A DNA stretch of 32,000 nucleotides from Halomicronema hongdechloris C2206 (GCF_002075285.3 NZ_CP021983.2:5250001-5282000), one strand, 5' to 3'; shown: positions 21,303 to 32,000, numbered from the stretch's first letter. Notes: generated by a model from the letters alone, not told the origin. Numbers and translations: made by a program.

Positions 21303-24300
21303 TTACTTCTGCCTTGGCGTACTAGGACCGTGGCGAGTTTCGATCGTCTCCTCGGCGGAGTGGGTTAGACTCCGCAGGGCGTCCAACAAGGTCGGCATCG
21401 CTGAGGGCCACAGTCCCCGTTGATGGGCTTCGATCAGTCGCTCAGCCATGTCCCGCAGGGCCCAGGGATTGGCTTGGCGGACAAAGGCTTGCACCTGGGG
21501 ATCGAGTAAATAGGCCTGGGCGACGCCCTCATAGATGTGGTCCGCCACACACTGGGCCGTGGCATCGTAGGCAAACAGATAATCGACCGTCGCCGCCATC
21601 TCGAAGGCGCCCTTATAGCCGTGGCGCATGACGCCGGCGATCCATTTGGGGTTGACCACTCGGGACCGGTAAACTCGAGCGATTTCTTGGCTCAGGGATC
21701 GTAATCGGGGCGTCTCAGGCCGGGAATGGTCACCAAAATAAGTTTGGGGATTGCGGCCGGTGATGGCCCGCACGGCGGCGGTTAATCCCCCCTGAAACTG
21801 GTAATAGTCGTCGGAATCGAGCAGATCATGTTCTCGATTGTCTTGGTTGTGGAGCACCACCTGCAGATGACTGAGGCGATGGGTAAACGCCTCTGGGGCC
21901 GACCGTCCTGGGGCGTCGTGGCCGTAGGCATAGCTACTCCAATTGACATAGGCCCGAGCCAGATCCTCATTCCCCTGCCAGTTTTGGGCGTCGATCAGCC
22001 CCTGTAGCCCGGCACCATAGGCCCCTGGCTTGGAGCCAAACACGCGGTAGCTGGCCCGCCGCTGGGCCTGGTCTGGTGGCAGTCCCTGCTGTTGCCAGTA
22101 GGCAGCTTCTTGCTGCACTCGCTGAGCCAGGGGGTTTTGGTCGGGAGGTTCGGCCAAGGCGGCCACGGCGGCGGCGGCCTGGTCAAACAGGTCGATTAAA
22201 TTGGCGAAGGCATCCCGGAAGAAGCCGGAAATGCGTAGGGTCACATCTACCCGGGGCCGCCCCAAGGCACTCAGGGGCAAGATCTCAAAATCGACCACCC
22301 GACGCGAAGCCCCGTCCCAGATAGGCCGTACTCCCAGTAGAGCCAGAGCTTCAGCCAGATCATCGCCGCCAGTGCGCATGGTGGCAGTGCCCCAGACGGA
22401 TAAGCCCAGGGTCTGGGGATAGTCGCCATGGTCTTGTAGGTACCGCTCGATCAATTCCTCGGCGGCTCGACGCCCCACGTCCCAGGCGCTTTCGGAGGGG
22501 ATGGCCCGCAGATCCACGGCGTAGAAGTTGCGGCCAGTGGGTAAGACATCGGGGCGATTGCGACTGGGAGCCCCAGAGGGGACGCTGGGGACATAGTGCC
22601 CCCCTAGTCCTCGGAGCAGATGGGTGATTTCCTGGGGAGTCTGAATCAGGGCGGGCAGCAGCTGCTGCTGCATCCAGACCAGATCGGGATGCTGGGGCGG
22701 CGGTGGCTGTATCGGCGGGCTGGTGGATGGGGCCGGGCCATGGCCCAAGGATGCCAGCATGGCCGCCACGATGGCGGCAGCTTGCTGCTCTAGGACCTCG
22801 ACCACGTCACCGACGATGCGGCAAGGACGAAGCAGACTGTCAATGGCTGGATCGGTATCAGGGGTAAGGGCATCAACCTGCCAGGGCTGGGCCGGCGGAT
22901 CGCTCAGGGGATCGAGGTCGAGGCCCCACGTGTCGGCGATGGCTCGGGTTAGCCCCCGCCGATGGCCGCTGGGATGGCGGGCAATGGCGACGACTAAATC
23001 TCGCAGTAACCGCCCTGCGGGGCAACGCCCTAAGATGTGTAGGCCGTCTCGAATCTGAGCTTCTTTGAGATCGCAGAGGTAGGCATCGAGAGTCGGGAGT
23101 AGAGACGATAGGGACGCGGAGGAGGCAAGAGACGTCGGGGAGGAGTCGAGGGGGAGCTCGTCTAGGAGGTGGCTGTCGCGCAGGAGATTGACGATGCGAT
23201 CGCAAATCACCGGCAGGCGCGTCGGATCCAGACTCTGGGCCTCATAGTATTCATCCACCAGCCGTTCCAGGGCCTGCAGCGGCCCATAGAGTTCGGCCCG
23301 AGTCAGGGGTGGCGTCAGGTGATCGAGAATCACTGCCTGGCTGCGACGCTTGGCCTGGGCGCCTTCCCCTGGGTCATTGACAATGAAGGGATAGAGGTGG
23401 GGCAACGGCCCTAGGGCCACCTCCGGGTAACAGGTGTGGCTGAGGGCAATGCCTTTACCGGGCAGCCATTCCAGATTGCCGTGTTTGCCCACATGCACCA
23501 GGGCCTGGGCCCGAAAGACCTGGCGCAGCCAGTGGTAAAAGGCGAGGTAGTCGTGGCTGGGCTCCAGGTCGGGGGCGTGGTAATTCAGGGATGGATCGGC
23601 ATCGTAGCCGCGACTGGGCTGGATGCCCACGAACACATGGCCCAGCTGCAGGCCAGCTACAGGATAATACTGCCTGTCTGGTGGCGGGGCCAGGGGATCG
23701 CCCCAGCGTTGCCGCAGGGCCTGCTGCACAGTCTCGGGCAAACTCTGGAAGTAGCTCTGGTACTGCTGCCCGGAGAGAGACTGACGCACTGGTCGCAGCT
23801 GCCGCCCCTCTGGGTCATTGCTGATGCCATCGGTGAGCCACTGGATGAGCTCATCGCCATCGCTGGGCAGGGGATCGACCCGATAGCCAGCCGCCCGCAG
23901 GGCTTGCAGGAGTTCCACCACGCTTTGGGGAGTATCGAGGCCGACGCCATTGGCCAGGCGGCCGTCTCGGTTGGGGTAATTGGCCAAAATCAGGGCAATC
24001 CGTTGCTGTTCGGGGGGAGTGCGGCCCAGGCCAGCCCAGTTGGCTGCCAGATCGGCCACAAAGTCGATGCGATCGACGATGGGCTCGTAGGTAACCACAT
24101 CGGTTTCCAGGGCAGTGTTGCGCTGGTTGATCGCCTTACAGGACACCAGGCGAGTAATGATGCGCCCATCCACCTCTGGCAGGGCCACATTCATGGCCAT
24201 ATCTCGGGGGGATAGGCCCTGGGGATGACGTTGCCAGAGCTCTTGGGAGCCACCGCTGAGGATGGCCTGGAGTACGGGCACATCCAAGGTTTGCCAGAGA

Positions 24301-25154
24301 TCGAGGCGGGGGCTGGCGCTCTCTAGCTTGGCCAGCGAAAAGCTAGTGGTGTTGATCACCCCATCGATGGCTGGCCGTCCCTGATCACAGACGTGCTCTA
24401 GCAGCCCTGCCTGCACCTCCGGATCCTGTAGGGTGGCCACATAGATGGGCAGCGGCCGCAGTCCTCGCCGCTCTAGGGCTTGGCAGAGGGCATCGATGGG
24501 GGCAGTGTTGCCGGCCAGATAGTGGGCCCGGTAGAAGAGCAGGCCGATGCTGGCTGTAGGGGGAGCAGTTGCCGGAGCGATAGATGTCGTGGAATGGTAG
24601 GGGTACAGCCCCACCTTAGGCACCGGTTGTGGATCGGGTGGATTGAAATGACTACCGAAGATGCGATCGCAGATCCACAAGAGGCCATGGCAAACATTAT
24701 CCAGCCCCCCCTCGACTAGATAACGCCAGAGACCATGGGCAACGGTGAGCGACACTGTAGAATGGCTGATCAGGTCTGGATCTGGCCGATCATCCCCCGG
24801 CAGCACGATTAACGCCGCGCCAGTACGATCCACCACCTCCTTCACCACCTCCAAGCCGTAAGACCAGTAGGCCCGTCCTCCCAACAGCCGCAGGATAATC
24901 AACTGGGCCTGGGCCAATACCTGATCAGCATAGGTGTCAATGGTCAGGGGCTGCTTCAACTGCAATAAATTGGCTCCCCGCAGCTGCGGAAACCCCGATG
25001 GCAGTTGCGGGGTCACCCGAGCCAGGGTCTGAATTTCACTATCTGCTGCCGTGATAAAAACCACCGGCGCCGGGGTCTGCTCAATAAAAATTACCCCATC
25101 GGTGTCTGGAGTCCATCCCCCTGGCGTTGCCGCGAGTCGGTGCATGGTCGTCAA
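21303..25154 (-). CDS. cobN: cobaltochelatase large subunit CobN (aerobic cobalamin pathway)
   Basis: 1283-aa uninterrupted ORF. The N-terminus (VVFITAADSEIQTLA...LIILRLLGGRAYWSYGLE) and overall length fit the CobN/Mg-chelatase H family. The N-terminal pattern fits CobN rather than ChlH. Confidence 0.85.
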   Translation of the reverse strand: MTTMHRLAATPGGWTPDTDGVIFIEQTPAPVVFITAADSEIQTLARVTPQLPSGFPQLRGANLLQLKQPLTIDTYADQVLAQAQLIILRLLGGRAYWSYGLEVVKEVVDRTGAALIVLPGDDRPDPDLISHSTVSLTVAHGLWRYLVEGGLDNVCHGLLWICDRIFGSHFNPPDPQPVPKVGLYPYHSTTSIAPATAPPTASIGLLFYRAHYLAGNTAPIDALCQALERRGLRPLPIYVATLQDPEVQAGLLEHVCDQGRPAIDGVINTTSFSLAKLESASPRLDLWQTLDVPVLQAILSGGSQELWQRHPQGLSPRDMAMNVALPEVDGRIITRLVSCKAINQRNTALETDVVTYEPIVDRIDFVADLAANWAGLGRTPPEQQRIALILANYPNRDGRLANGVGLDTPQSVVELLQALRAAGYRVDPLPSDGDELIQWLTDGISNDPEGRQLRPVRQSLSGQQYQSYFQSLPETVQQALRQRWGDPLAPPPDRQYYPVAGLQLGHVFVGIQPSRGYDADPSLNYHAPDLEPSHDYLAFYHWLRQVFRAQALVHVGKHGNLEWLPGKGIALSHTCYPEVALGPLPHLYPFIVNDPGEGAQAKRRSQAVILDHLTPPLTRAELYGPLQALERLVDEYYEAQSLDPTRLPVICDRIVNLLRDSHLLDELPLDSSPTSLASSASLSSLLPTLDAYLCDLKEAQIRDGLHILGRCPAGRLLRDLVVAIARHPSGHRRGLTRAIADTWGLDLDPLSDPPAQPWQVDALTPDTDPAIDSLLRPCRIVGDVVEVLEQQAAAIVAAMLASLGHGPAPSTSPPIQPPPPQHPDLVWMQQQLLPALIQTPQEITHLLRGLGGHYVPSVPSGAPSRNRPDVLPTGRNFYAVDLRAIPSESAWDVGRRAAEELIERYLQDHGDYPQTLGLSVWGTATMRTGGDDLAEALALLGVRPIWDGASRRVVDFEILPLSALGRPRVDVTLRISGFFRDAFANLIDLFDQAAAAVAALAEPPDQNPLAQRVQQEAAYWQQQGLPPDQAQRRASYRVFGSKPGAYGAGLQGLIDAQNWQGNEDLARAYVNWSSYAYGHDAPGRSAPEAFTHRLSHLQVVLHNQDNREHDLLDSDDYYQFQGGLTAAVRAITGRNPQTYFGDHSRPETPRLRSLSQEIARVYRSRVVNPKWIAGVMRHGYKGAFEMAATVDYLFAYDATAQCVADHIYEGVAQAYLLDPQVQAFVRQANPWALRDMAERLIEAHQRGLWPSAMPTLLDALRSLTHSAEETIETRHGPSTPRQK

Positions 25155-25590
25155 TGCTTAAGGAACTGCGAAATCTGAAGGAACTCTAGTGTACGAGGGG
25201 AAAGCCCTTAGGGGGAAGTTAGGATAATCATCAGCCATTTCAAGGTTGATCATGTCCCTATTTTCATTGTCCCCGGAGGCCATGAGCTGAGGTTGAGGCT
25301 ACTGCACAGCCGATAAGCCTCGGCCAAGTCTACCTCCAGAGAGGGCTGCCCGGGAACCAACCACTCCCGACTTGACTTGGTATGGGGAGGCTGTTTGAGA
25401 GCCGATTGTTCACTCAGGCTAATTGTCCGCTGCTATGGGCAGGGGGCGATAGAGATAGCGAGGCTGAAGCAGTTGAGATGGTTGTGCCATACAACCACCG
25501 TCACGCTTAGGCGGTGGCATGTCCACTAGGAGTCAACTAGAGGACTAATTCATGCTGCTCTGAGTATTGGGCTAAGGCGCTATTCCTCGC

Positions 25591-27966
25591 TTGGCCAGAC
25601 CTGCAAACATCCGTGTAGATTGCCAGTTGCCAGGGTGCTGCTGTCACCCGCCGTTATTTATGTTCAGTTTTGCCGACATTCCTTACTATCCCTTGCCCCG
25701 GGCTGTGCTGCAGCGGATGCAACACTACTTAGAGTGGCAACAGCGGCAGCTAGGCGGTACCTTACTCACCACTGCCCATCCAGCCGTGTCAGCGGCGGTT
25801 GCTCCCTACGGGGTTTACCTCCTGGTAGCGCCATCCTTGGCGGTATTGGTGTTGCATCGTCCCAGGGCTAGGGAGGAGGTCACAGACAATGTCAGTCTCA
25901 TTCTAGAGAAGGAGACCATGGTCGAGTTCCTCCACTACTTACAGGCCAGCTTGGCAGCAGAGTCTCCCCATCAAGCCCTGTTGTCTATCCTAGAGGCCGA
26001 GTTAAGCAACAGCCCCTCCCCAGAGTATGGCCCCTTTTTCCTAAAGCTGATGGCGGCAGCCATGGTTGGAGAGCCAGTATCGGCTCCTCAGACTGATGGC
26101 ACCACTCCAGAAAAGCCCGATCCAGAGAGCCACTGCCAGTGCCAACCGCTACGGCAGGCACTAGATCAACAGCTAGAACAGAGCCTGTTGCTCAATCACG
26201 TCGTCCAGAAAATTCAGGGCAGCCTAGAACTCCCCGCTATTTTGGAAACCACCGTAGCAGAGGTGCGTCGGTTCCTAGAGGCGGATCGGCTACTGGTGTA
26301 TCAGTTTGCAGTAGACCCGGACCAGAGCCCAGAGCCATCACCCCCACCCCTGGCCCCAGACAAGTCTGCAGGCCAATCTCACCATGCCGGTTACATTGCC
26401 TACGAATCCCGAGCAAACGACACGATCTCATCGGTGCTGCACCACAGTGAGCACTACTGCTTTATTAAGCCGCCCCACTCCCAGGCCAGATATTACCAAG
26501 GTCATCCTTTGGTGGTGGATGACATCGTAGCCGCCTACCACCACTGCGACTGTTTGCAGACCGTTTTACAGCAAGCCCAGGTTCAATCCATGCTGATTGT
26601 GCCGATTCTGGTGGATCAGACCCTGTGGGGCTTACTAATTGCTCATCAATGTACCCATCAGCGGCAGTGGCAATCCTGGGAACTGACCTTTCTGCAGCAT
26701 ATTGGTGAGCATTTAGCCATCGCCATTCATCAAGCCCAACTCTACCGAGAGCTACAGCAGCAGACCCAAAACTTAGAGTCCTGTGTTGTAGAACGGACCC
26801 AAGATCTGCGGGATGCCCTAATTGCGGCTCAATCGGCTAATCGGGCCAAGGGCGAATTCCTAGCCACTATGAGTCACGAGCTACGGACGCCCTTGACCTG
26901 CATTATTGGCATGTCGGCCACGTTACTGCGGTGGTCCTTTGGCGATTTGAGCCCCCGGCAGCAACATTATCTGACCACGATTCATCAAAGTGGTGAACAT
27001 TTGCTGGAGCTGATTAATAACATCCTGGAAGTCTCCAAGATCGAGTCCAGACGAACAGCCCTAGATATCAGTGAGTTTTCTCTGGCCGCCTTGGCTCATC
27101 AAGTAGCCGATGCCTTTCGCCAAGATGCCCTCACCCAGGAAGTCACTCTCACGGTCGAACTTTCCCTCGGTGCTGACCAGGATAGATTTATTGCTGATTT
27201 CCGGCGGGTTGGCCAAATCTTAGCCAATCTACTCAGTAACGCCATTAAATTTACCCCTCCTGGTGGTCAGGTCTGCCTGCGTATTCGTCGGGACCAACAG
27301 ATGGCGGTGTTAATCGTAGAAGACACTGGTATCGGCATTCCGGAGATGCAGCAGTCCCTGTTATTTGAGAAATTTCAGCAGTTAGAGACTGCCCGCCAAC
27401 GGCAATACCAGGGCACCGGATTGGGCCTGGCCTTGACCCAGCAACTGGTTGATTTACATGGGGGGTCGATTCAGGTCAGTTCTACCGTGGGAGAGGGATC
27501 TGTCTTTATGGTGCGGTTACCGATGCAATCGCTGGCGGGTCCCACTCGTCCCATGGCCAGTGCCCCCGCCATCACGGCTGACTCCGAGGTGGGTCGGATT
27601 GTTTTGGTGGAAGACAATGAGGAGACGGCCAGTCTCATCTGCGATTTATTGACAGCAGCTGATTATCAAGTGATTTGGGTGATGGAGGGCTCGACGGTGG
27701 TCGAGCAAGTCAAGTTACTGCAACCAGCCGCTGTCATCATCAACCTAAATATGGCTGATACCCATGGGGGTGGCATCATGCAAGCCTTGCGGTCTACTCC
27801 CACCACTGCCAGTGTTAAGATCGTTGCCTTAATCGATGTCGGCGATGCAGAGCAGAGTATGGCTGCGCACCGGGTAGGGGCGGATGAGGTATTGCCTGCT
27901 GCCATTGTTCCAGATCAGTTGTTAACGACAATTCATACCCTGATGACCTCATTACCGGTGCCCTAA
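25591..27966 (+). CDS. cikA: GAF-domain sensor histidine kinase with C-terminal pseudo-receiver (CikA-like circadian input kinase)
   Basis: GAF domain (LPAILETTVAEVRRFLEADRLLVYQF...LIVPILVDQTLWGLLIAHQC), H-box FLATMSHELRTPLT, and ATPase boxes LSNAIKFTPPGG, EDTGIGIP and GTGLGLAL. The receiver-like domain has Asn in place of the phospho-acceptor Asp (AAVIINLNMAD). The likely start is ATG 25660 (MFSFADIPYY) rather than TTG 25591. Confidence 0.6.
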   Translation: MARPANIRVDCQLPGCCCHPPLFMFSFADIPYYPLPRAVLQRMQHYLEWQQRQLGGTLLTTAHPAVSAAVAPYGVYLLVAPSLAVLVLHRPRAREEVTDNVSLILEKETMVEFLHYLQASLAAESPHQALLSILEAELSNSPSPEYGPFFLKLMAAAMVGEPVSAPQTDGTTPEKPDPESHCQCQPLRQALDQQLEQSLLLNHVVQKIQGSLELPAILETTVAEVRRFLEADRLLVYQFAVDPDQSPEPSPPPLAPDKSAGQSHHAGYIAYESRANDTISSVLHHSEHYCFIKPPHSQARYYQGHPLVVDDIVAAYHHCDCLQTVLQQAQVQSMLIVPILVDQTLWGLLIAHQCTHQRQWQSWELTFLQHIGEHLAIAIHQAQLYRELQQQTQNLESCVVERTQDLRDALIAAQSANRAKGEFLATMSHELRTPLTCIIGMSATLLRWSFGDLSPRQQHYLTTIHQSGEHLLELINNILEVSKIESRRTALDISEFSLAALAHQVADAFRQDALTQEVTLTVELSLGADQDRFIADFRRVGQILANLLSNAIKFTPPGGQVCLRIRRDQQMAVLIVEDTGIGIPEMQQSLLFEKFQQLETARQRQYQGTGLGLALTQQLVDLHGGSIQVSSTVGEGSVFMVRLPMQSLAGPTRPMASAPAITADSEVGRIVLVEDNEETASLICDLLTAADYQVIWVMEGSTVVEQVKLLQPAAVIINLNMADTHGGGIMQALRSTPTTASVKIVALIDVGDAEQSMAAHRVGADEVLPAAIVPDQLLTTIHTLMTSLPVP

Positions 27967-28030
27967 TGCTATGACTGCTCCCTCAGTGGAATTACCCTGC
28001 GACCTCTACGCCATTCCTATCTGAGATGCC

Positions 28031-31000
28031 ATGAATCCGATACAGGATGCCTTTATTTCCTACGGACGAGCTGACAGTAAACAGTTCGTCCGTAAGCTCA
28101 GTGATCGGCTGCTTGAGTCGGGAATTGAAGTGTGGGTTGACTTCGAGGATATTCCCTTAGGGGTTGATTATCAGAAGCAAATTGATGATGCCATTGATAA
28201 GGCGGATAACTTCATCTTTGTCATTGCCCCGCACTCCATCAACTCGGCTTACTGTCTGCTAGAAGTCGAGCGAGCCCTGAAGCACAACAAACGTATCATT
28301 CCATTACTGCACGTTGAGCAGATTAGTTACGACACTTGGAAGGAGCGAAATCCAGAGGGAACTGCGGCTGACTGGGACACTTTCCGCTCGGCTGGAAAAC
28401 ATTCCAGTTTCCCCAACATGCACCCGGCCATCAGTAAAATCAACTGGGTTTATTGTCGCGAAGGCATTGATGACTTCGACCAGTCTTTTCAAGGGCTGTT
28501 AGATATCTTCCAGCGGTCCCGTGACTATGTGCGTCAGCATACGACTCTGTTGAGCCAGGCCTTGACATGGGAGCGGAATCAAAGACAAATCCAATATCTG
28601 CTGGCGGGTGAATCGCTACAACAGGCGGAAGCCTGGCTCAAAACTCGTTTTAGGGAGGTTCAATCGCCCTGCTGGCCCACAGATCTGCAGTGCGAGTTCA
28701 TCACCGAAAGCATTAAAAATGCCAATAATTACATGACTCAGGCCTTTCTGAGTCATGCGGAGGAGGATGCAGCGATCGCCCGAGAAGTTCACCTGTCGCT
28801 ACGGCGGATGGGGTTCACGACTTGGACCAGTTGGAGTGATATTCGCACTGGGGTAGATTTTCAGGCGGCCATCGATCTCGGGATTGAGGCGGCTGATAAT
28901 TTGATCTATTTGTTGTCGCCGGCGTCGTTGCGATCGCACTACTGTCAGTACGAACTAAACTATGCCCTGCGCCTGAATAAGCGGATTATTCCGCTGCTGG
29001 TGCGCCCGGTTGACCTAGAAACAGTGCCAGAACCGCTGCGAGTCCTGCAATTCATTGACCTAAGCGATAACACTCAACCCTCAGACTATTGGTCTGACGA
29101 GAGCGATTTAATCAGGGCTCTGAACCGGGAAGCCACCTACTACGACACCCACAAGCGGCTGTTAGTTCAGGCCTTGAAGTGGCAACGACAGCGACAAAAT
29201 CCCAGTATTTTGCTGCGCGGTTATGAGCTGCGGCAGGCCGAGTCTTGGCTGACGGTGGCTAAGCAGCATCCCCAACATCCACCGGTTTCTATTCAGACAG
29301 ACTTCATTGAGACCAGCCGGCAGCAGCCGCTTGATATTACCATTGATGTCTTTATTTCCTGCTCCGAAAAAGACCTAGATTTTGCCCGCCGCCTCAACGA
29401 CACCCTGCAAGTGCAAGGGGAAAGTACCTGGTTTGAACAGAGCAAATGGGCAGACAACCAAGAATATCGGGCCCAGGTGAGACAGGGGATTGAGAATGCA
29501 GAAAACTTTATTCTGATTGTCTCCCCCAGTTCGCTGACGTCGACTAGTTGCTTAGAAGAGCTGGACTGGGCCCAAACCCTCTGCAAGCGTATTGTTGCCG
29601 TCTCATACCAGCCGCTGGCGCAGCTGCAGATACCGACTGCCCTAGCAGCCTCTCTTTGGGTGGATTTTACTGCCCATGACGGCGACTTCTTGACGAACTT
29701 TGGCGAGTTGTACCGGATGCTCAAGAGCAATCCAGAGTATGTCCAGGCCCATACTCGCCTGCTGGTTAAGGCCCTGGAGTGGGAACAGTCTGGCCATGAC
29801 GATAGCCTGCTGTTGCGCAGCCGAGAGTTGACTAATGCCAGCACTTGGCTACAGCAGGCTGCCCAACAGACACCGCCGCCCACCGATCGCCACCGAACCT
29901 ATATCCAGGCCAGCCAGGCCCTACCGTTTCGGCGGATCAAACTGCGCTCTGCCGCGTTGATGGGGGCCATGGCTACCGTCTTCGTATTAGCGGCCCGCCT
30001 GTTGGGGGTACTGCAAGGAGCTGAACTTCAGGCCTATGACCATCTGTTGCGACGACAGCCCAATGAAGCCCCAGATGATCGATTCTTGATCGTGACTGTC
30101 GATGAGAACAGTGGTTCCCTGCTGCGAGAGCGCCTGATTGCCGGAGACTATGCCCCGACTATCGGCACCATTCCTGATGCTGCCTTGCAAGAAACCCTGA
30201 GGATTTTGGCAGAGCATCAGCCGCGTCTGATCGGCCTCGATTTTTATCGAGATTTTCCGGCAACCCCTGAATTGGCTAACAGCCTACGCAGCAGAGACAC
30301 CATCATCACCCTCTGCAAGGCCAGCTATGAGGGCGAAGGGGTGCCCAAGTCCCCGGAAGTCCCCTGGGAACGGGTGGGCTTCAGTGATTTGGTCAGCGAC
30401 ACCATGACTGGTCCTACCTATATCCGGCGTCACTATATCATGCAGGCCCCTGACCCTGACTTTTGTAATACCCCTAGGTCCTTTAGTTTGCTGCTGGCCA
30501 GCCGTTACCTAAAGCAGGAGGCAGCCATCAGCCGCACTGATCCCTTGCTCCCAGTGGGGAACACCTATGAATTTCGCCGCGATGGTCTGGCCTTTGGCGA
30601 GACAGTCATCTCCAACCTGACCTTAGGCCGCGGCCCCTATTACCAGGATCCAGACTTCTTCAATGGCTATCAAACCCTGCTGAACTATAGAACTGGCCCC
30701 AATCCTGATACTGGTAAGGCGCGAGATCCGGGACAATTTGCTCCGCGGGTGTCCCTAGCAGACCTGCTGACCAATCAAGTGCCTAGACAATGGGTGGAAG
30801 ATCGCATTGTGCTAATTGGCTATAGCGATCTGGCCGATCGCAATGCCGACTACTGGCAAACGCCCTATGGCGAGGTGCCCGGGGTAATTTTACAGGGACA
30901 AATGGCAAGTCAGCTGATTAGTCGCGTGCTAGATAATCGCCCCCTGATTCGCTGGTGGCCCCTGGGGGCAGAGGTGCTCTGGATTGCAGCCTGGGCCATG

Positions 31001-31204
31001 GTTGGCGGGCTAATCTTCTGGCGCATCGTGCGGTCGCGACGACTGATAGTTGCGATTGTTGTGAGCCTCGGCCTCTTATATGGCACAGCTTATATATTGA
31101 TGGTTAGTAGTGCTCTCTGGATTCCCTTGGTTCCCCCTTTGATCACCTTCCTGCTCACGGCAACGGGAGTGGCTGTTCTAAATCACCGACTGCGGAATCC
31201 TTAG
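28031..31204 (+). CDS. membrane protein with three tandem TIR domains fused to a C-terminal CHASE2 sensor module
   Basis: 1057 aa. TIR1 starts at nt 28031 (DAFISYGRADS...NFIFVIAPHSINSAYCLLEVERAL..KRIIPLL). TIR2 starts at about nt 28733 (QAFLSHAEED...NLIYLLSPASLRSHYCQYELNYAL..KRIIPLL). TIR3 starts at about nt 29339 (DVFISCSEKD...NFILIVSPSSLTSTSCLEELDWA). A TM helix lies at about nt 29941-30012. The CHASE2-like ectodomain reads FLIVTVDENS...PRLIGLDFYRDFP. Three C-terminal TM helices lie at about nt 30955-31180, then the stop. Confidence 0.8.
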   Translation: MNPIQDAFISYGRADSKQFVRKLSDRLLESGIEVWVDFEDIPLGVDYQKQIDDAIDKADNFIFVIAPHSINSAYCLLEVERALKHNKRIIPLLHVEQISYDTWKERNPEGTAADWDTFRSAGKHSSFPNMHPAISKINWVYCREGIDDFDQSFQGLLDIFQRSRDYVRQHTTLLSQALTWERNQRQIQYLLAGESLQQAEAWLKTRFREVQSPCWPTDLQCEFITESIKNANNYMTQAFLSHAEEDAAIAREVHLSLRRMGFTTWTSWSDIRTGVDFQAAIDLGIEAADNLIYLLSPASLRSHYCQYELNYALRLNKRIIPLLVRPVDLETVPEPLRVLQFIDLSDNTQPSDYWSDESDLIRALNREATYYDTHKRLLVQALKWQRQRQNPSILLRGYELRQAESWLTVAKQHPQHPPVSIQTDFIETSRQQPLDITIDVFISCSEKDLDFARRLNDTLQVQGESTWFEQSKWADNQEYRAQVRQGIENAENFILIVSPSSLTSTSCLEELDWAQTLCKRIVAVSYQPLAQLQIPTALAASLWVDFTAHDGDFLTNFGELYRMLKSNPEYVQAHTRLLVKALEWEQSGHDDSLLLRSRELTNASTWLQQAAQQTPPPTDRHRTYIQASQALPFRRIKLRSAALMGAMATVFVLAARLLGVLQGAELQAYDHLLRRQPNEAPDDRFLIVTVDENSGSLLRERLIAGDYAPTIGTIPDAALQETLRILAEHQPRLIGLDFYRDFPATPELANSLRSRDTIITLCKASYEGEGVPKSPEVPWERVGFSDLVSDTMTGPTYIRRHYIMQAPDPDFCNTPRSFSLLLASRYLKQEAAISRTDPLLPVGNTYEFRRDGLAFGETVISNLTLGRGPYYQDPDFFNGYQTLLNYRTGPNPDTGKARDPGQFAPRVSLADLLTNQVPRQWVEDRIVLIGYSDLADRNADYWQTPYGEVPGVILQGQMASQLISRVLDNRPLIRWWPLGAEVLWIAAWAMVGGLIFWRIVRSRRLIVAIVVSLGLLYGTAYILMVSSALWIPLVPPLITFLLTATGVAVLNHRLRNP

Positions 31205-31369
31205 GGTGTTGAATGATGTCATCTACTAGTGCTCGACGGTGGCAATAGCCCCCTATTGGTTAAAGGCAGCAGCCTTGAGACGTCGAGAATTCTCCTTCTG
31301 CCTTCTGCCTTTCTGTACTAGTGGTGTTATCTACCGTATCTCCTAGTCATCTAAGGATGCTCTGACGCT

Positions 31370-32000
31370 ATGCCTACCCCCACCTTTCGTCGTCGCCTCG
31401 TCCGCAGACTCGTACCCTTGGTTCTGGCAGTACCGATCATGGCTGCGATCGCACCCCAGGCTGAGGCTGGATTAATCGAACGCATCCAGTCTATTTTCGG
31501 TGGCGGTAATACTGGTGGCCAAGTCAGCAATGGCCGCAGCCGCGGTGGGGCCATCCGGAGAGAAGTCTGCGGGCAACCAGTAGCAGGAACTAGCGAGCTC
31601 GGCAGCACTAGCGAGTCGCAGCAGCCCAATCAGGGGGCCTCTCAGGCATCTGCGGCAGACGTCACCACGGAGCCCAGCTCTAACATGCTGGTAGTCCTAA
31701 GCCCGCCTACACGGCAAAAAACCACCCAGGCCCGCCCTTCGTTTTACCTCTACGTACCCTACGGGCAATCTGCCGAGAACATACGACTGTTCTTCGAATT
31801 GAGCCAGATTAATCCTGAAGTGCCTGTTCCCCATGCCCCCCGCACCATTGCCAACCTACCCCTACAGCTGCCAGAGACCCCAGGATGGGTCAGATTTCAG
31901 GTTCCCGAAGAGATCGCCCTGGAAGTCGGCAAGACCTATGCCTGGAACTTTAATATCCAATGCGTTGCCTCCGAGTCTGCCACTGCAACCGCGTCGGCTG
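31370..32000 (+). CDS. DUF928 domain-containing secreted protein (partial; continues right of the window)
   Basis: Absent from the ORF track because it runs off the window. ATG 31370. Hand translation: MPTPTFRRRLVRRLVPLVLAVPIMAAIAPQAEA (signal), GGQVSNGRSRGGAIRREVCG, LVVLSPPTRQKTTQARPSFYLYVPY...LFFELSQ...PGWVRFQVPEEIALEVGKTYAWNFNIQC. This matches the DUF928 pattern as I remember it (GG.RG..C, PtFyWYvP, Y.W.f...C). Confidence 0.7.
   Translation, partial: MPTPTFRRRLVRRLVPLVLAVPIMAAIAPQAEAGLIERIQSIFGGGNTGGQVSNGRSRGGAIRREVCGQPVAGTSELGSTSESQQPNQGASQASAADVTTEPSSNMLVVLSPPTRQKTTQARPSFYLYVPYGQSAENIRLFFELSQINPEVPVPHAPRTIANLPLQLPETPGWVRFQVPEEIALEVGKTYAWNFNIQCVASESATATASA

Follow-up and report, generated by a model that had tools for sequence, protein, structure and literature searches.

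A triple TIR array fused to a CHASE2 sensor in Halomicronema hongdechloris: a candidate envelope receptor with a putative NAD+-cleaving output

Introduction

What does a cyanobacterial membrane sensor control when its cytoplasmic part is a tandem array of TIR domains, and does it act by itself or as one piece of a larger machinery? The question is raised by an open reading frame (ORF) of Halomicronema hongdechloris C2206 found in a 32,000-nucleotide (nt) stretch of its genome (NZ_CP021983.2:5250001-5282000), called here the window, whose first letter is position 1 of the window coordinates used below. The complete ORF, which occupies 28031..31204 on the + strand and starts with ATG, codes for a protein of 1057 amino acids (aa) composed of three TIR domains, each with a helical tail, a first transmembrane segment (TM1), a CHASE2 domain and three further transmembrane segments (TM2-TM4). 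We favour, with a probability of roughly 55%, the reading that this protein, hereafter the receptor, is an inner-membrane receptor whose CHASE2 domain detects an event in the envelope or outside the cell, upon which the three-TIR array cleaves nicotinamide adenine dinucleotide (NAD+).

Domain architecture and membrane topology

An earlier note on this DNA, made from its sequence, had described three TIR-like modules followed by one transmembrane helix, a CHASE2-like ectodomain and three closing helices after which the protein ends, and had proposed profile searches as a check. Pfam, hydropathy and AlphaFold2 modelling all bear out this description. TIR_2 (PF13676) matches three stretches of the receptor with an E-value of 4.2e-69 and TIR (PF01582) matches three stretches with 75 bits for a cut-off of 21.3, while CHASE2 (PF05226) aligns to aa 648-994 over positions 2-257 of its 257-position profile (E 2.8e-49). 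The TIR_2 and CHASE2 scores are far above their cut-offs (231 versus 28 bits and 168 versus 26.3 bits, respectively). The motifs SAYCLLEVE (with E78), SHYCQYELN (E308), STSCLEELD (E510), FLIVTVDENS and PRLIGLDFYRDFP are present in the translation. The tripartite TIR-transmembrane-CHASE2 organization is confirmed, far beyond chance.

Kyte-Doolittle hydropathy places one transmembrane segment before CHASE2 and three after it, and the AlphaFold2 model of aa 628-1057 has four long helices that match them. TM1 (~aa 640-664, 29948..30022, + strand) runs from the cytoplasm to the periplasm and leads to the CHASE2 ectodomain delimited by Pfam and the model (~aa 665-976, 30023..30958, +). TM2-TM4 (~aa 977-1051, 30959..31183, +) are followed by a short basic cytoplasmic carboxyl terminus, the protein stopping 6 residues past TM4. 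Basic clusters lie before TM1 (RRIKLR), between TM2 and TM3 (RIVRSRR) and at the carboxyl terminus (HRLRNP), and the translation has no signal peptide at its amino terminus. Because of the position of these clusters and the lack of an N-terminal signal peptide, the TIR domains are assigned to the cytoplasm and CHASE2 to the periplasm. The CHASE2 ectodomain is strongly conserved across the family, with many invariant residues; its model is of moderate confidence, with a predicted local distance difference test (pLDDT) value of 71, and is weakly predicted at ~763-815 and ~838-884. The receptor does not have the classical CHASE2 layout, in which the output lies carboxyl-terminal to the last transmembrane segment: its output is N-terminal.

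TIR units and putative catalytic sites

The N-terminal 640 aa form three units of ~205-232 aa, mutually 31-36% identical, each made of a TIR domain and a ~60-aa helical tail with the consensus H-T-R-L-L-x-K-A-L-E-W … L-L-R-G-x-x-L-x-x-A-E-x-W-L … F-I-x-x-S. Unit U1 (TIR1; aa 1-232, 28031..28726, + strand) carries the putative catalytic residue E78 (nt 28262-28264) with Y74 at position -4, and unit U2 (TIR2; aa 233-437, 28727..29341, +), which has a three-helix tail, carries E308 (nt 28952-28954) with Y304 at position -4. The membrane-proximal U3 (TIR3; aa 438-639, 29342..29947, +) has E510 (nt 29558-29560), a non-aromatic residue at position -4 (S506) and a tail that runs into RRIKLR. These are distinct conserved unit types, U3 being always the last one, next to the membrane. 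In relatives with five TIR units the order is U1-U2-U1-U2-U3 in 46/46 proteins; the U1-U2 pair therefore duplicates as a block. U1 has in addition an insertion of ~60 aa (~aa 95-160, nt 28310-28510) which TIR2 and TIR3 do not have and in which W103, R106, W115, M130, I134, I137, N138, W139 and R143 are invariant in orthologs. This insertion could be a regulatory or ligand-binding element.

Structural comparison, also suggested in the earlier note, was carried out for U2 and agrees with a TIR fold. The AlphaFold2 model of U2 (pLDDT 91, predicted template modelling score 0.87), whose three tail helices are also predicted with high confidence, matches solved TIR domains in Foldseek with E ~1e-6 and TM-scores of 0.7-0.86 normalised to the target. 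The best matches are Hydra TRR-2, SPARTA TIR-APAZ, TLR15, SARM1 and MyD88. They cover the TIR part only (~140 columns), and the helical tail has no counterpart in solved structures.

The earlier note had placed a catalytic Glu in each of the three TIR domains, which holds well for the first two and only in part for the third. In alignments to PDB sequences E78 pairs with residue 77 of SPARTA TIR-APAZ, which we take to be its catalytic Glu, and E308 pairs with the final E of the WTEYE (WxxxE) motif of BtTir. The assignment of E510 comes solely from the internal alignment of the three units and their common E-x8-K-R spacing, since the PDB alignments of TIR3 stop before the Glu or mis-register on a SARM1-specific insertion. 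All 72 three-unit orthologs compared, which are ~50% identical, have the Glu in U1 and in U2 (72/72 each), with an aromatic residue at position -4 in almost every case (Y or H in U1; Y in 47 and W in 23 for U2). The same column of U3 has E in 58 orthologs, Q in nine, D in three and another residue in two, and the last unit of the five-TIR forms has E in 19 and Q in 17, the Glu of TIR3 being thus lost in part of the family. Judged from these alignments, TIR1 and TIR2 are very probably enzymes. TIR3 is less constrained by catalysis, and its role may be chiefly structural.

An exchangeable output on a CHASE2-DUF928 chassis

The receptor gene is followed, 165 nt downstream on the same strand, by the 5' part of a DUF928 gene (31370..32000, +; PF06051, E 8e-14) that leaves the window at its end. 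The same adjacency is found well outside the TIR-bearing receptors. Metagenomes yielded 79 loci built around divergent DUF928 genes, which share 28-40% identity with the query in all but the two closest loci. A CHASE2 gene adjoins DUF928 in 63 of the 66 loci with enough flank and lies directly upstream on the same strand in 54. Only three of these 63 CHASE2 proteins bear TIR units. Ten others scanned with Pfam carry an N-terminal CHAT domain (six), a Ser/Thr kinase domain (one) or a C-terminal adenylate/guanylate cyclase domain (two), or consist of CHASE2 alone (one). The CHAT-CHASE2 fusions have ~765-836 aa and are each followed by DUF928 (loci L087, L094, L101, L119, L139 and L146); the cyclase and kinase versions are found in L111, L142 and L091. 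CHAT-CHASE2 proteins appear to be the commonest members of this chassis.

An exhaustive search with the CHASE2 region gave 2804 cluster representatives. The domains fused to CHASE2 in 63 proteins sampled among the closest ones are CHAT (36), TIR (eight), kinase (three) and cyclase (three), together with trypsin, nSTAND1 and EAD10 (one each). Among the 150 closest representatives, proteins with an effector at the N-terminus and CHASE2 at the C-terminus predominate, so that the N-terminal output of the receptor is not the oddity that the earlier note had made of it. Since CHASE2 and its secreted partner stay the same and the cytoplasmic module is swapped, the TIR array takes the place of the output of CHASE2, the role first proposed for it. 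This output swapping, in which CHAT, kinase or cyclase modules replace the TIR array on DUF928-paired CHASE2 proteins, is the strongest available argument for that role.

The receptor family and its conserved envelope gene cluster

The receptor is no one-off fusion, which would be absent from other genomes. At least 1386 relatives of the receptor were found at E<=1e-10, with 3-TIR and 5-TIR forms in cyanobacterial genomes. They fall into three groups: proteins of ~1050 aa with three units and CHASE2, proteins of ~1500 aa with five units and CHASE2, and paralogs in which the TIR array is followed by a transmembrane segment and WD40 repeats. A scan of one genome per GTDB species gave 463 relatives; in the best 80 of these 463 loci every named record is cyanobacterial, mostly from filamentous lineages. 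The WD40 paralogs (P0061, P0064, P0066, P0069, P0071, P0077, P0117 and the product of L059 19985-24214) have TIR units 50-53% identical and no CHASE2, and seven of the eight examined have one strong transmembrane segment between the TIR array and WD40. This suggests that their β-propellers are extracytoplasmic; the WD40 paralogs would then be a second kind of TIR-array membrane receptor.

Gene neighbourhoods were compared in 62 three-unit and 21 five-unit genome loci, using longest-ORF gene calls and profiles built for this analysis. DUF928 lies directly downstream of the 3-TIR gene, on the same strand, in 46 of the 54 loci with enough sequence and is divergently oriented upstream in four more. 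Where the flanks reach at least 8 kb on each side (22 3-TIR loci), 21 loci have DUF928, 17 a TPR-CHAT protease, 16 a two-partner secretion (TPS) exoprotein and 13 a ShlB/POTRA transporter. The DUF928, TPR-CHAT, TPS and ShlB proteins all have signal-peptide-like N-termini, the TIR array being therefore the sole cytoplasmic part of the core cluster. These counts do not agree with the self-contained module pictured in the earlier note: the receptor is the product of one gene of a conserved multi-gene envelope system.

The DUF928 proteins share two conserved Cys and, after the signal peptide, the motif G-x-a-S-G-R-S-R-G-G-A-x-R-x-x-C (SGRSRGGATRxxC). This Arg/Gly-rich region is found at 31370-31480 of the window and in the DUF928 genes of L001-L084; the window protein has a signal peptide (…AIAPQAEA) followed by the conserved motif NGRSRGGAIRREVC. 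The 5-TIR clusters have an unrelated-looking secreted TPR protein in place of DUF928, with the analogous motif RRRGRASNTRAGGKRTGR at the equivalent site; TIRx3-WD40, the second multi-TIR protein of these clusters, is encoded two genes downstream. A single exoprotein of ~1285 aa (L059 15885-19742; also L062, L064, L065, L068, L079 and L080) unites TPS and CHAT there, and the caspase-like protease would therefore itself be a cargo of two-partner secretion. DUF928 is a candidate periplasmic partner or ligand of CHASE2.

TIR-linked SLOG, SLATT and muramidase neighbours

Clustering of the flanking ORFs revealed recurrent LSDAT_prok proteins (SLOG fold), two-transmembrane proteins of the DUF4231/SLATT_3 type and M15 peptidases. 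LSDAT or SLATT genes lie near 19 of the 62 3-TIR genes (12/22 with long flanks) and 14 of the 21 5-TIR genes (9/10 with long flanks), that is in 33/83 family loci overall. In Nostocales they are found on either side of the cluster. The association is specific to TIR: in the DUF928-centred set LSDAT/SLATT accompany only TIR-bearing receptors (L086, L088) and none of the 60 non-TIR CHASE2 loci. The comparison of TIR-bearing with non-TIR loci (28/86 versus 0/60) gives a Fisher p of ~5e-8, or ~2e-5 when limited to loci of at least 9 kb, both values ignoring kinship between loci.

Long forms of 427-545 aa make up 21 of the 29 SLATT proteins. The three long forms scanned all carry a muramidase-type domain at the C-terminus: in the one from Nostocales it is Phage_lysozyme, and in the two from marine Leptolyngbya-type lineages it is Glyco_hydro_19-like. 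These SLATT-muramidase fusions (L022 6518-7930; L059 6519-8054, - strand; L044 3044-4681, - strand) each have an adjoining M15 peptidase gene, an arrangement that resembles a holin plus an endolysin.

Proposed mechanism

In the favoured reading of the receptor as an envelope sensor with NAD+-cleaving output, CHASE2 would detect in the periplasm an envelope or extracellular event. The TpsA, TpsB, CHAT and DUF928 proteins would generate the signal or present it to CHASE2, on which DUF928, or a fragment freed at its Arg/Gly-rich N-terminal motif, might act. The signal would pass through the four-helix transmembrane bundle and the U3 tail to promote TIR-TIR assembly, for which the three linked TIRs might, as the earlier note supposed, supply a pre-assembled activation interface. 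NAD+ would be cleaved at active sites contributed by TIR1 and TIR2, with TIR3 often having a structural, membrane-proximal role. The product would probably be a Thoeris-like messenger derived from ADP-ribose (ADPR). The neighbouring LSDAT (SLOG) protein and SLATT-muramidase effector of many relatives would respond to it, leading with the M15 peptidase to lysis.

Several observations weigh against this reading or limit its reach. The NAD+-cleaving (NADase) activity, the ligand of CHASE2 and the direction of signalling are all computational inferences. NADase activity requires the conserved Glu but is not guaranteed by it, and the CHASE2 model gives no match below E=1 among PDB folds and thus no structural pointer to a ligand. 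The gene calls are crude, taking the longest ORF, and signal peptides were judged by eye. Related loci inflate the independence of the counts and the Fisher p, and flank lengths differ between the locus sets. LSDAT and SLATT are absent from most 3-TIR loci outside Nostocales. No LSDAT, SLATT or M15 gene lies in the window, that is in the 28 kb before and the 0.8 kb after the receptor gene; CHAT, TPS and ShlB genes are not seen there either, the window ending inside DUF928. Because there is no lysis effector in the window, this genome could rely on plain NAD+ depletion or have its effectors encoded elsewhere.

A bolder extension, which we regard as rather unlikely, is that the system is a bacterial counterpart of the Toll pathway logic, linking a protease-processed ligand, a CHASE2 receptor, a TIR-made messenger and lysis. 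The CHAT protease, exported by two-partner secretion or bearing a signal peptide and placed at the surface or in the periplasm, would cut DUF928 at G-R-S-R-G-G-A-x-R-x-x-C, and processed DUF928 would be the ligand of the CHASE2 ectodomain. The heterotypic TIR array would then make an ADPR-derived messenger, to be read by LSDAT (a TRPM-type SLOG domain), and the SLATT-muramidase effector, 'holin-endolysin-like', would open so that the cell lyses. If true, this would amount to envelope-triggered altruistic death or danger signalling in mostly filamentous cyanobacteria, with one sensor chassis reused for cyclic AMP, kinase and protease outputs.

Alternative explanations

The TIR array might be a non-enzymatic scaffold or adaptor, as in Toll-like receptors (TLRs) and MyD88, that upon activation of CHASE2 recruits the TIR-transmembrane-WD40 paralogs or other proteins without cleaving NAD+. 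The Foldseek matches of U2 to TLR, MyD88 and TRR-2 are indeed equal to those to NADase TIRs, the 5-TIR clusters code for a second multi-TIR protein (TIRx3-WD40), and Q, D or A is tolerated at the Glu position of TIR3. However, the (near-)invariance of the Glu and of the aromatic residue at -4 in TIR1 and TIR2 of 72 orthologs is hard to explain without catalysis, and a small-molecule product is suggested by the specific association with SLOG and SLATT effectors, which respond to nucleotides; we consider a pure scaffold quite unlikely. The presence of SLOG and SLATT effectors nearby in relatives also suits a Thoeris-like anti-phage sensor whose TIR units would detect a phage cue in the cytoplasm, CHASE2 and the transmembrane segments merely serving for anchoring at the membrane or for localisation near a membrane effector. 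Described Thoeris TIRs respond to phage infection inside the cell, and partial matches at the TIR level are obtained with models of ThsB, type III ThcB4 and retron-TIR (PADLOC, NCBIfam). These scores are far under the cut-offs (55 versus 220 bits for ThcB4, 63 versus 600 for retron-TIR). A mere anchor would not be expected to have a strongly conserved ectodomain, nor to retain a dedicated secreted DUF928 partner regardless of the output domain in a cluster whose other core genes all encode exported proteins, which makes the anchored anti-phage sensor unlikely.

The direction of signalling could also be reversed, the TIR array sensing the cytoplasmic NAD+ or nucleotide status and CHASE2 regulating the periplasmic CHAT protease or two-partner secretion. 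The extracytoplasmic products of the remaining cluster genes are possible regulated targets for such an inside-out device. Sister receptors, however, hold output enzymes where the TIR array stands (adenylate/guanylate cyclase, Ser/Thr kinase), CHASE2 is a sensor in the one characterised case, and the TIR-specific link to SLOG and SLATT, which are cytoplasmic or membrane proteins, puts the downstream step inside the cell. We find this reversal highly improbable. Finally, the NCBI protein of H. hongdechloris C2206 that is 100% identical to the receptor is named 'histidine kinase', and one may ask if the name is correct. Domain scans refute it: neither HisKA, HATPase_c nor any other kinase domain is found in the receptor at E<=1 (Pfam, NCBIfam), the protein ends 6 residues past TM4, and the real kinase is the product of the upstream gene. 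The chance that the name is right is next to nil, and the label is a mis-annotation. The Nostoc ortholog P0097 has the same name, which looks like a propagated mis-annotation.

Gene context in the window

The gene preceding the receptor gene codes for a hybrid histidine kinase with GAF-HisKA-HATPase_c-REC organization (25591..27966, + strand) and ends 64 nt before the receptor start. It was set aside as probably no core partner, similar kinases being found in only ~14 of the 83 family loci, at mixed positions and orientations. The contig L084, which carries an 89%-identical ortholog of the receptor, has the succession cobN (-), hybrid kinase (+), TIR-CHASE2 (+), DUF928 (+, 392 aa) and a convergent CHAT gene (-). 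As CHAT comes there right after DUF928, a CHAT gene probably lies just past the end of the window. No TPS or ShlB gene of this lineage turned up in the window or on the L084 contig. A promoter and terminator scan of 25200-32000 gave fewer sites than shuffled sequence and is silent on operon structure.

A defence-island context was considered and rejected: the window neighbours are housekeeping and envelope genes (cobN, ResB/CcdA, FtsW, M23, YkuD, OprB porin). The segment 2595-18377 codes for an OprB/SLH porin, an M23 peptidase, a YkuD L,D-transpeptidase, FtsW/RodA and CcdA (DsbD_TM), and also for ResB (cytochrome c biogenesis), a pentapeptide/MORN protein and a TrkA_N protein. A large CobN/Mg-chelatase gene (1283 aa) lies at 21303-25154 on the - strand. 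Several long antisense ORFs inside it, such as 23436-24215 (+), most likely have no other origin than the high G+C content there (0.60-0.65) and are artefacts.

Relation to known systems

Thoeris provides close points of comparison for the TIR output. In type I the TIR-made 3'cADPR activates a SLOG-SIR2 effector, type III combines several TIR proteins with a SLOG-domain effector by a signalling mode described as then uncharacterised, and type VII uses canonical cyclic ADP-ribose (cADPR) as signal for a SLATT effector (bioRxiv 10.64898/2025.12.03.692087). CHASE domains are not mentioned in that preprint (bioRxiv 10.64898/2025.12.03.692087). The conserved TIR Glu is a shared feature, and many relatives of the receptor have nearby SLOG (type I/III logic) and SLATT (type VII logic) genes; several TIR proteins are also a trait of type III. 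Here, in contrast, three or five linked non-identical TIRs are borne by an integral membrane protein with a periplasmic sensor, the partners (DUF928, CHAT, TPS/ShlB) are exported, the SLOG domain, of LSDAT type, belongs to a protein of its own and SLATT comes joined to a muramidase. No Thoeris family model reaches its cut-off, NCBIfam ThcB4 giving the 55 bits already mentioned and PADLOC ThsB single-TIR matches only. The receptor would work much as a CHASE2 receptor onto which the TIR sensor of Thoeris has been grafted, but because it lies below the curated thresholds and has no effector in the window, it should not be filed as Thoeris.

The sensor cassette of one transmembrane segment, CHASE2 and three transmembrane segments is identical to that of CHASE2 receptor enzymes such as adenylate cyclases, kinases or GGDEF proteins, and cyanobacterial CHASE2-cyclase genes likewise pair with DUF928. 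These enzymes have a C-terminal cyclase or kinase output instead of the N-terminal TIR array. CyaD1, CyaD2 and CyaK of S. meliloti form the only characterised CHASE2 pathway, which senses a protein (plant uL2) via an outer-membrane beta-barrel protein (PMC13001267). A protein-mediated input therefore fits here, and the dependence on a beta-barrel parallels the ShlB, TPS and DUF928 neighbours of the receptor. Caspase- and metacaspase-CHASE2 fusions were noted previously (PMC2853523; PMC8195603). The caspase/CHAT fusions, which are the closest CHASE2 relatives and also have a DUF928 partner, share with the receptor an N-terminal conflict-type effector and a C-terminal CHASE2, but their effector is a protease rather than TIR, and no LSDAT/SLATT genes were found near them (0/60).

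In SPARTA TIR-APAZ, SARM1, TIR-SAVED and TIR-STING a sensor module likewise controls TIR oligomerisation and NADase activity. Their sensors act in the cytoplasm, with nucleic acids or nucleotides as ligands, whereas the one described here is extracytoplasmic and is joined to tandem heterotypic TIRs. The likeness to animal Toll and Toll-like receptors is an analogy, with no homology claimed beyond the TIR domain: one polypeptide joins an extracellular sensor to intracellular TIR. Spaetzle, the ligand of Drosophila Toll, is processed by proteolysis, which the exported protease and small secreted protein of the cluster recall. Differently from Toll/TLR, the TIRs are here N-terminal and probably enzymatic rather than adaptor-recruiting, there are four transmembrane segments and the ectodomain is CHASE2 and not leucine-rich repeats.

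The earlier note knew of no described system with this architecture, and none was found. The literature searched on CHASE2 and TIR domains, outside which lie most subscription journals, has no description of a TIR-CHASE2 fusion, and the portion covered of the CHASE2-domain literature from 2015 onwards contains none of a TIR-array architecture. Neither is there a joint description of the CHAT domain and two-partner secretion in the searched literature, where DUF928 has only an incidental mention. The organization of the system, with an envelope chassis, a TIR array and SLOG/SLATT-muramidase effectors, appears to be undescribed.

Significance

The bacterial TIR systems in the searched literature (Thoeris types, SPARTA, TIR-SAVED, TIR-STING) have their trigger sensed in the cytoplasm. 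With a TIR array coupled to a sensor in the periplasm, TIR immunity or signalling would reach cues at or outside the envelope. It would also provide a testable context for three orphan components: CHASE2, for which we know of no ligand in cyanobacteria, DUF928, and prokaryotic LSDAT, a SLOG domain that has its homologue at the N-terminus of TRPM channels. The exchange of TIR, CHAT, kinase and cyclase outputs on one chassis is a natural experiment on what CHASE2 senses. The link to SLATT-muramidase proteins suggests a regulated route to lysis, which may bear on programmed cell death of cyanobacteria and on the collapse of their blooms.

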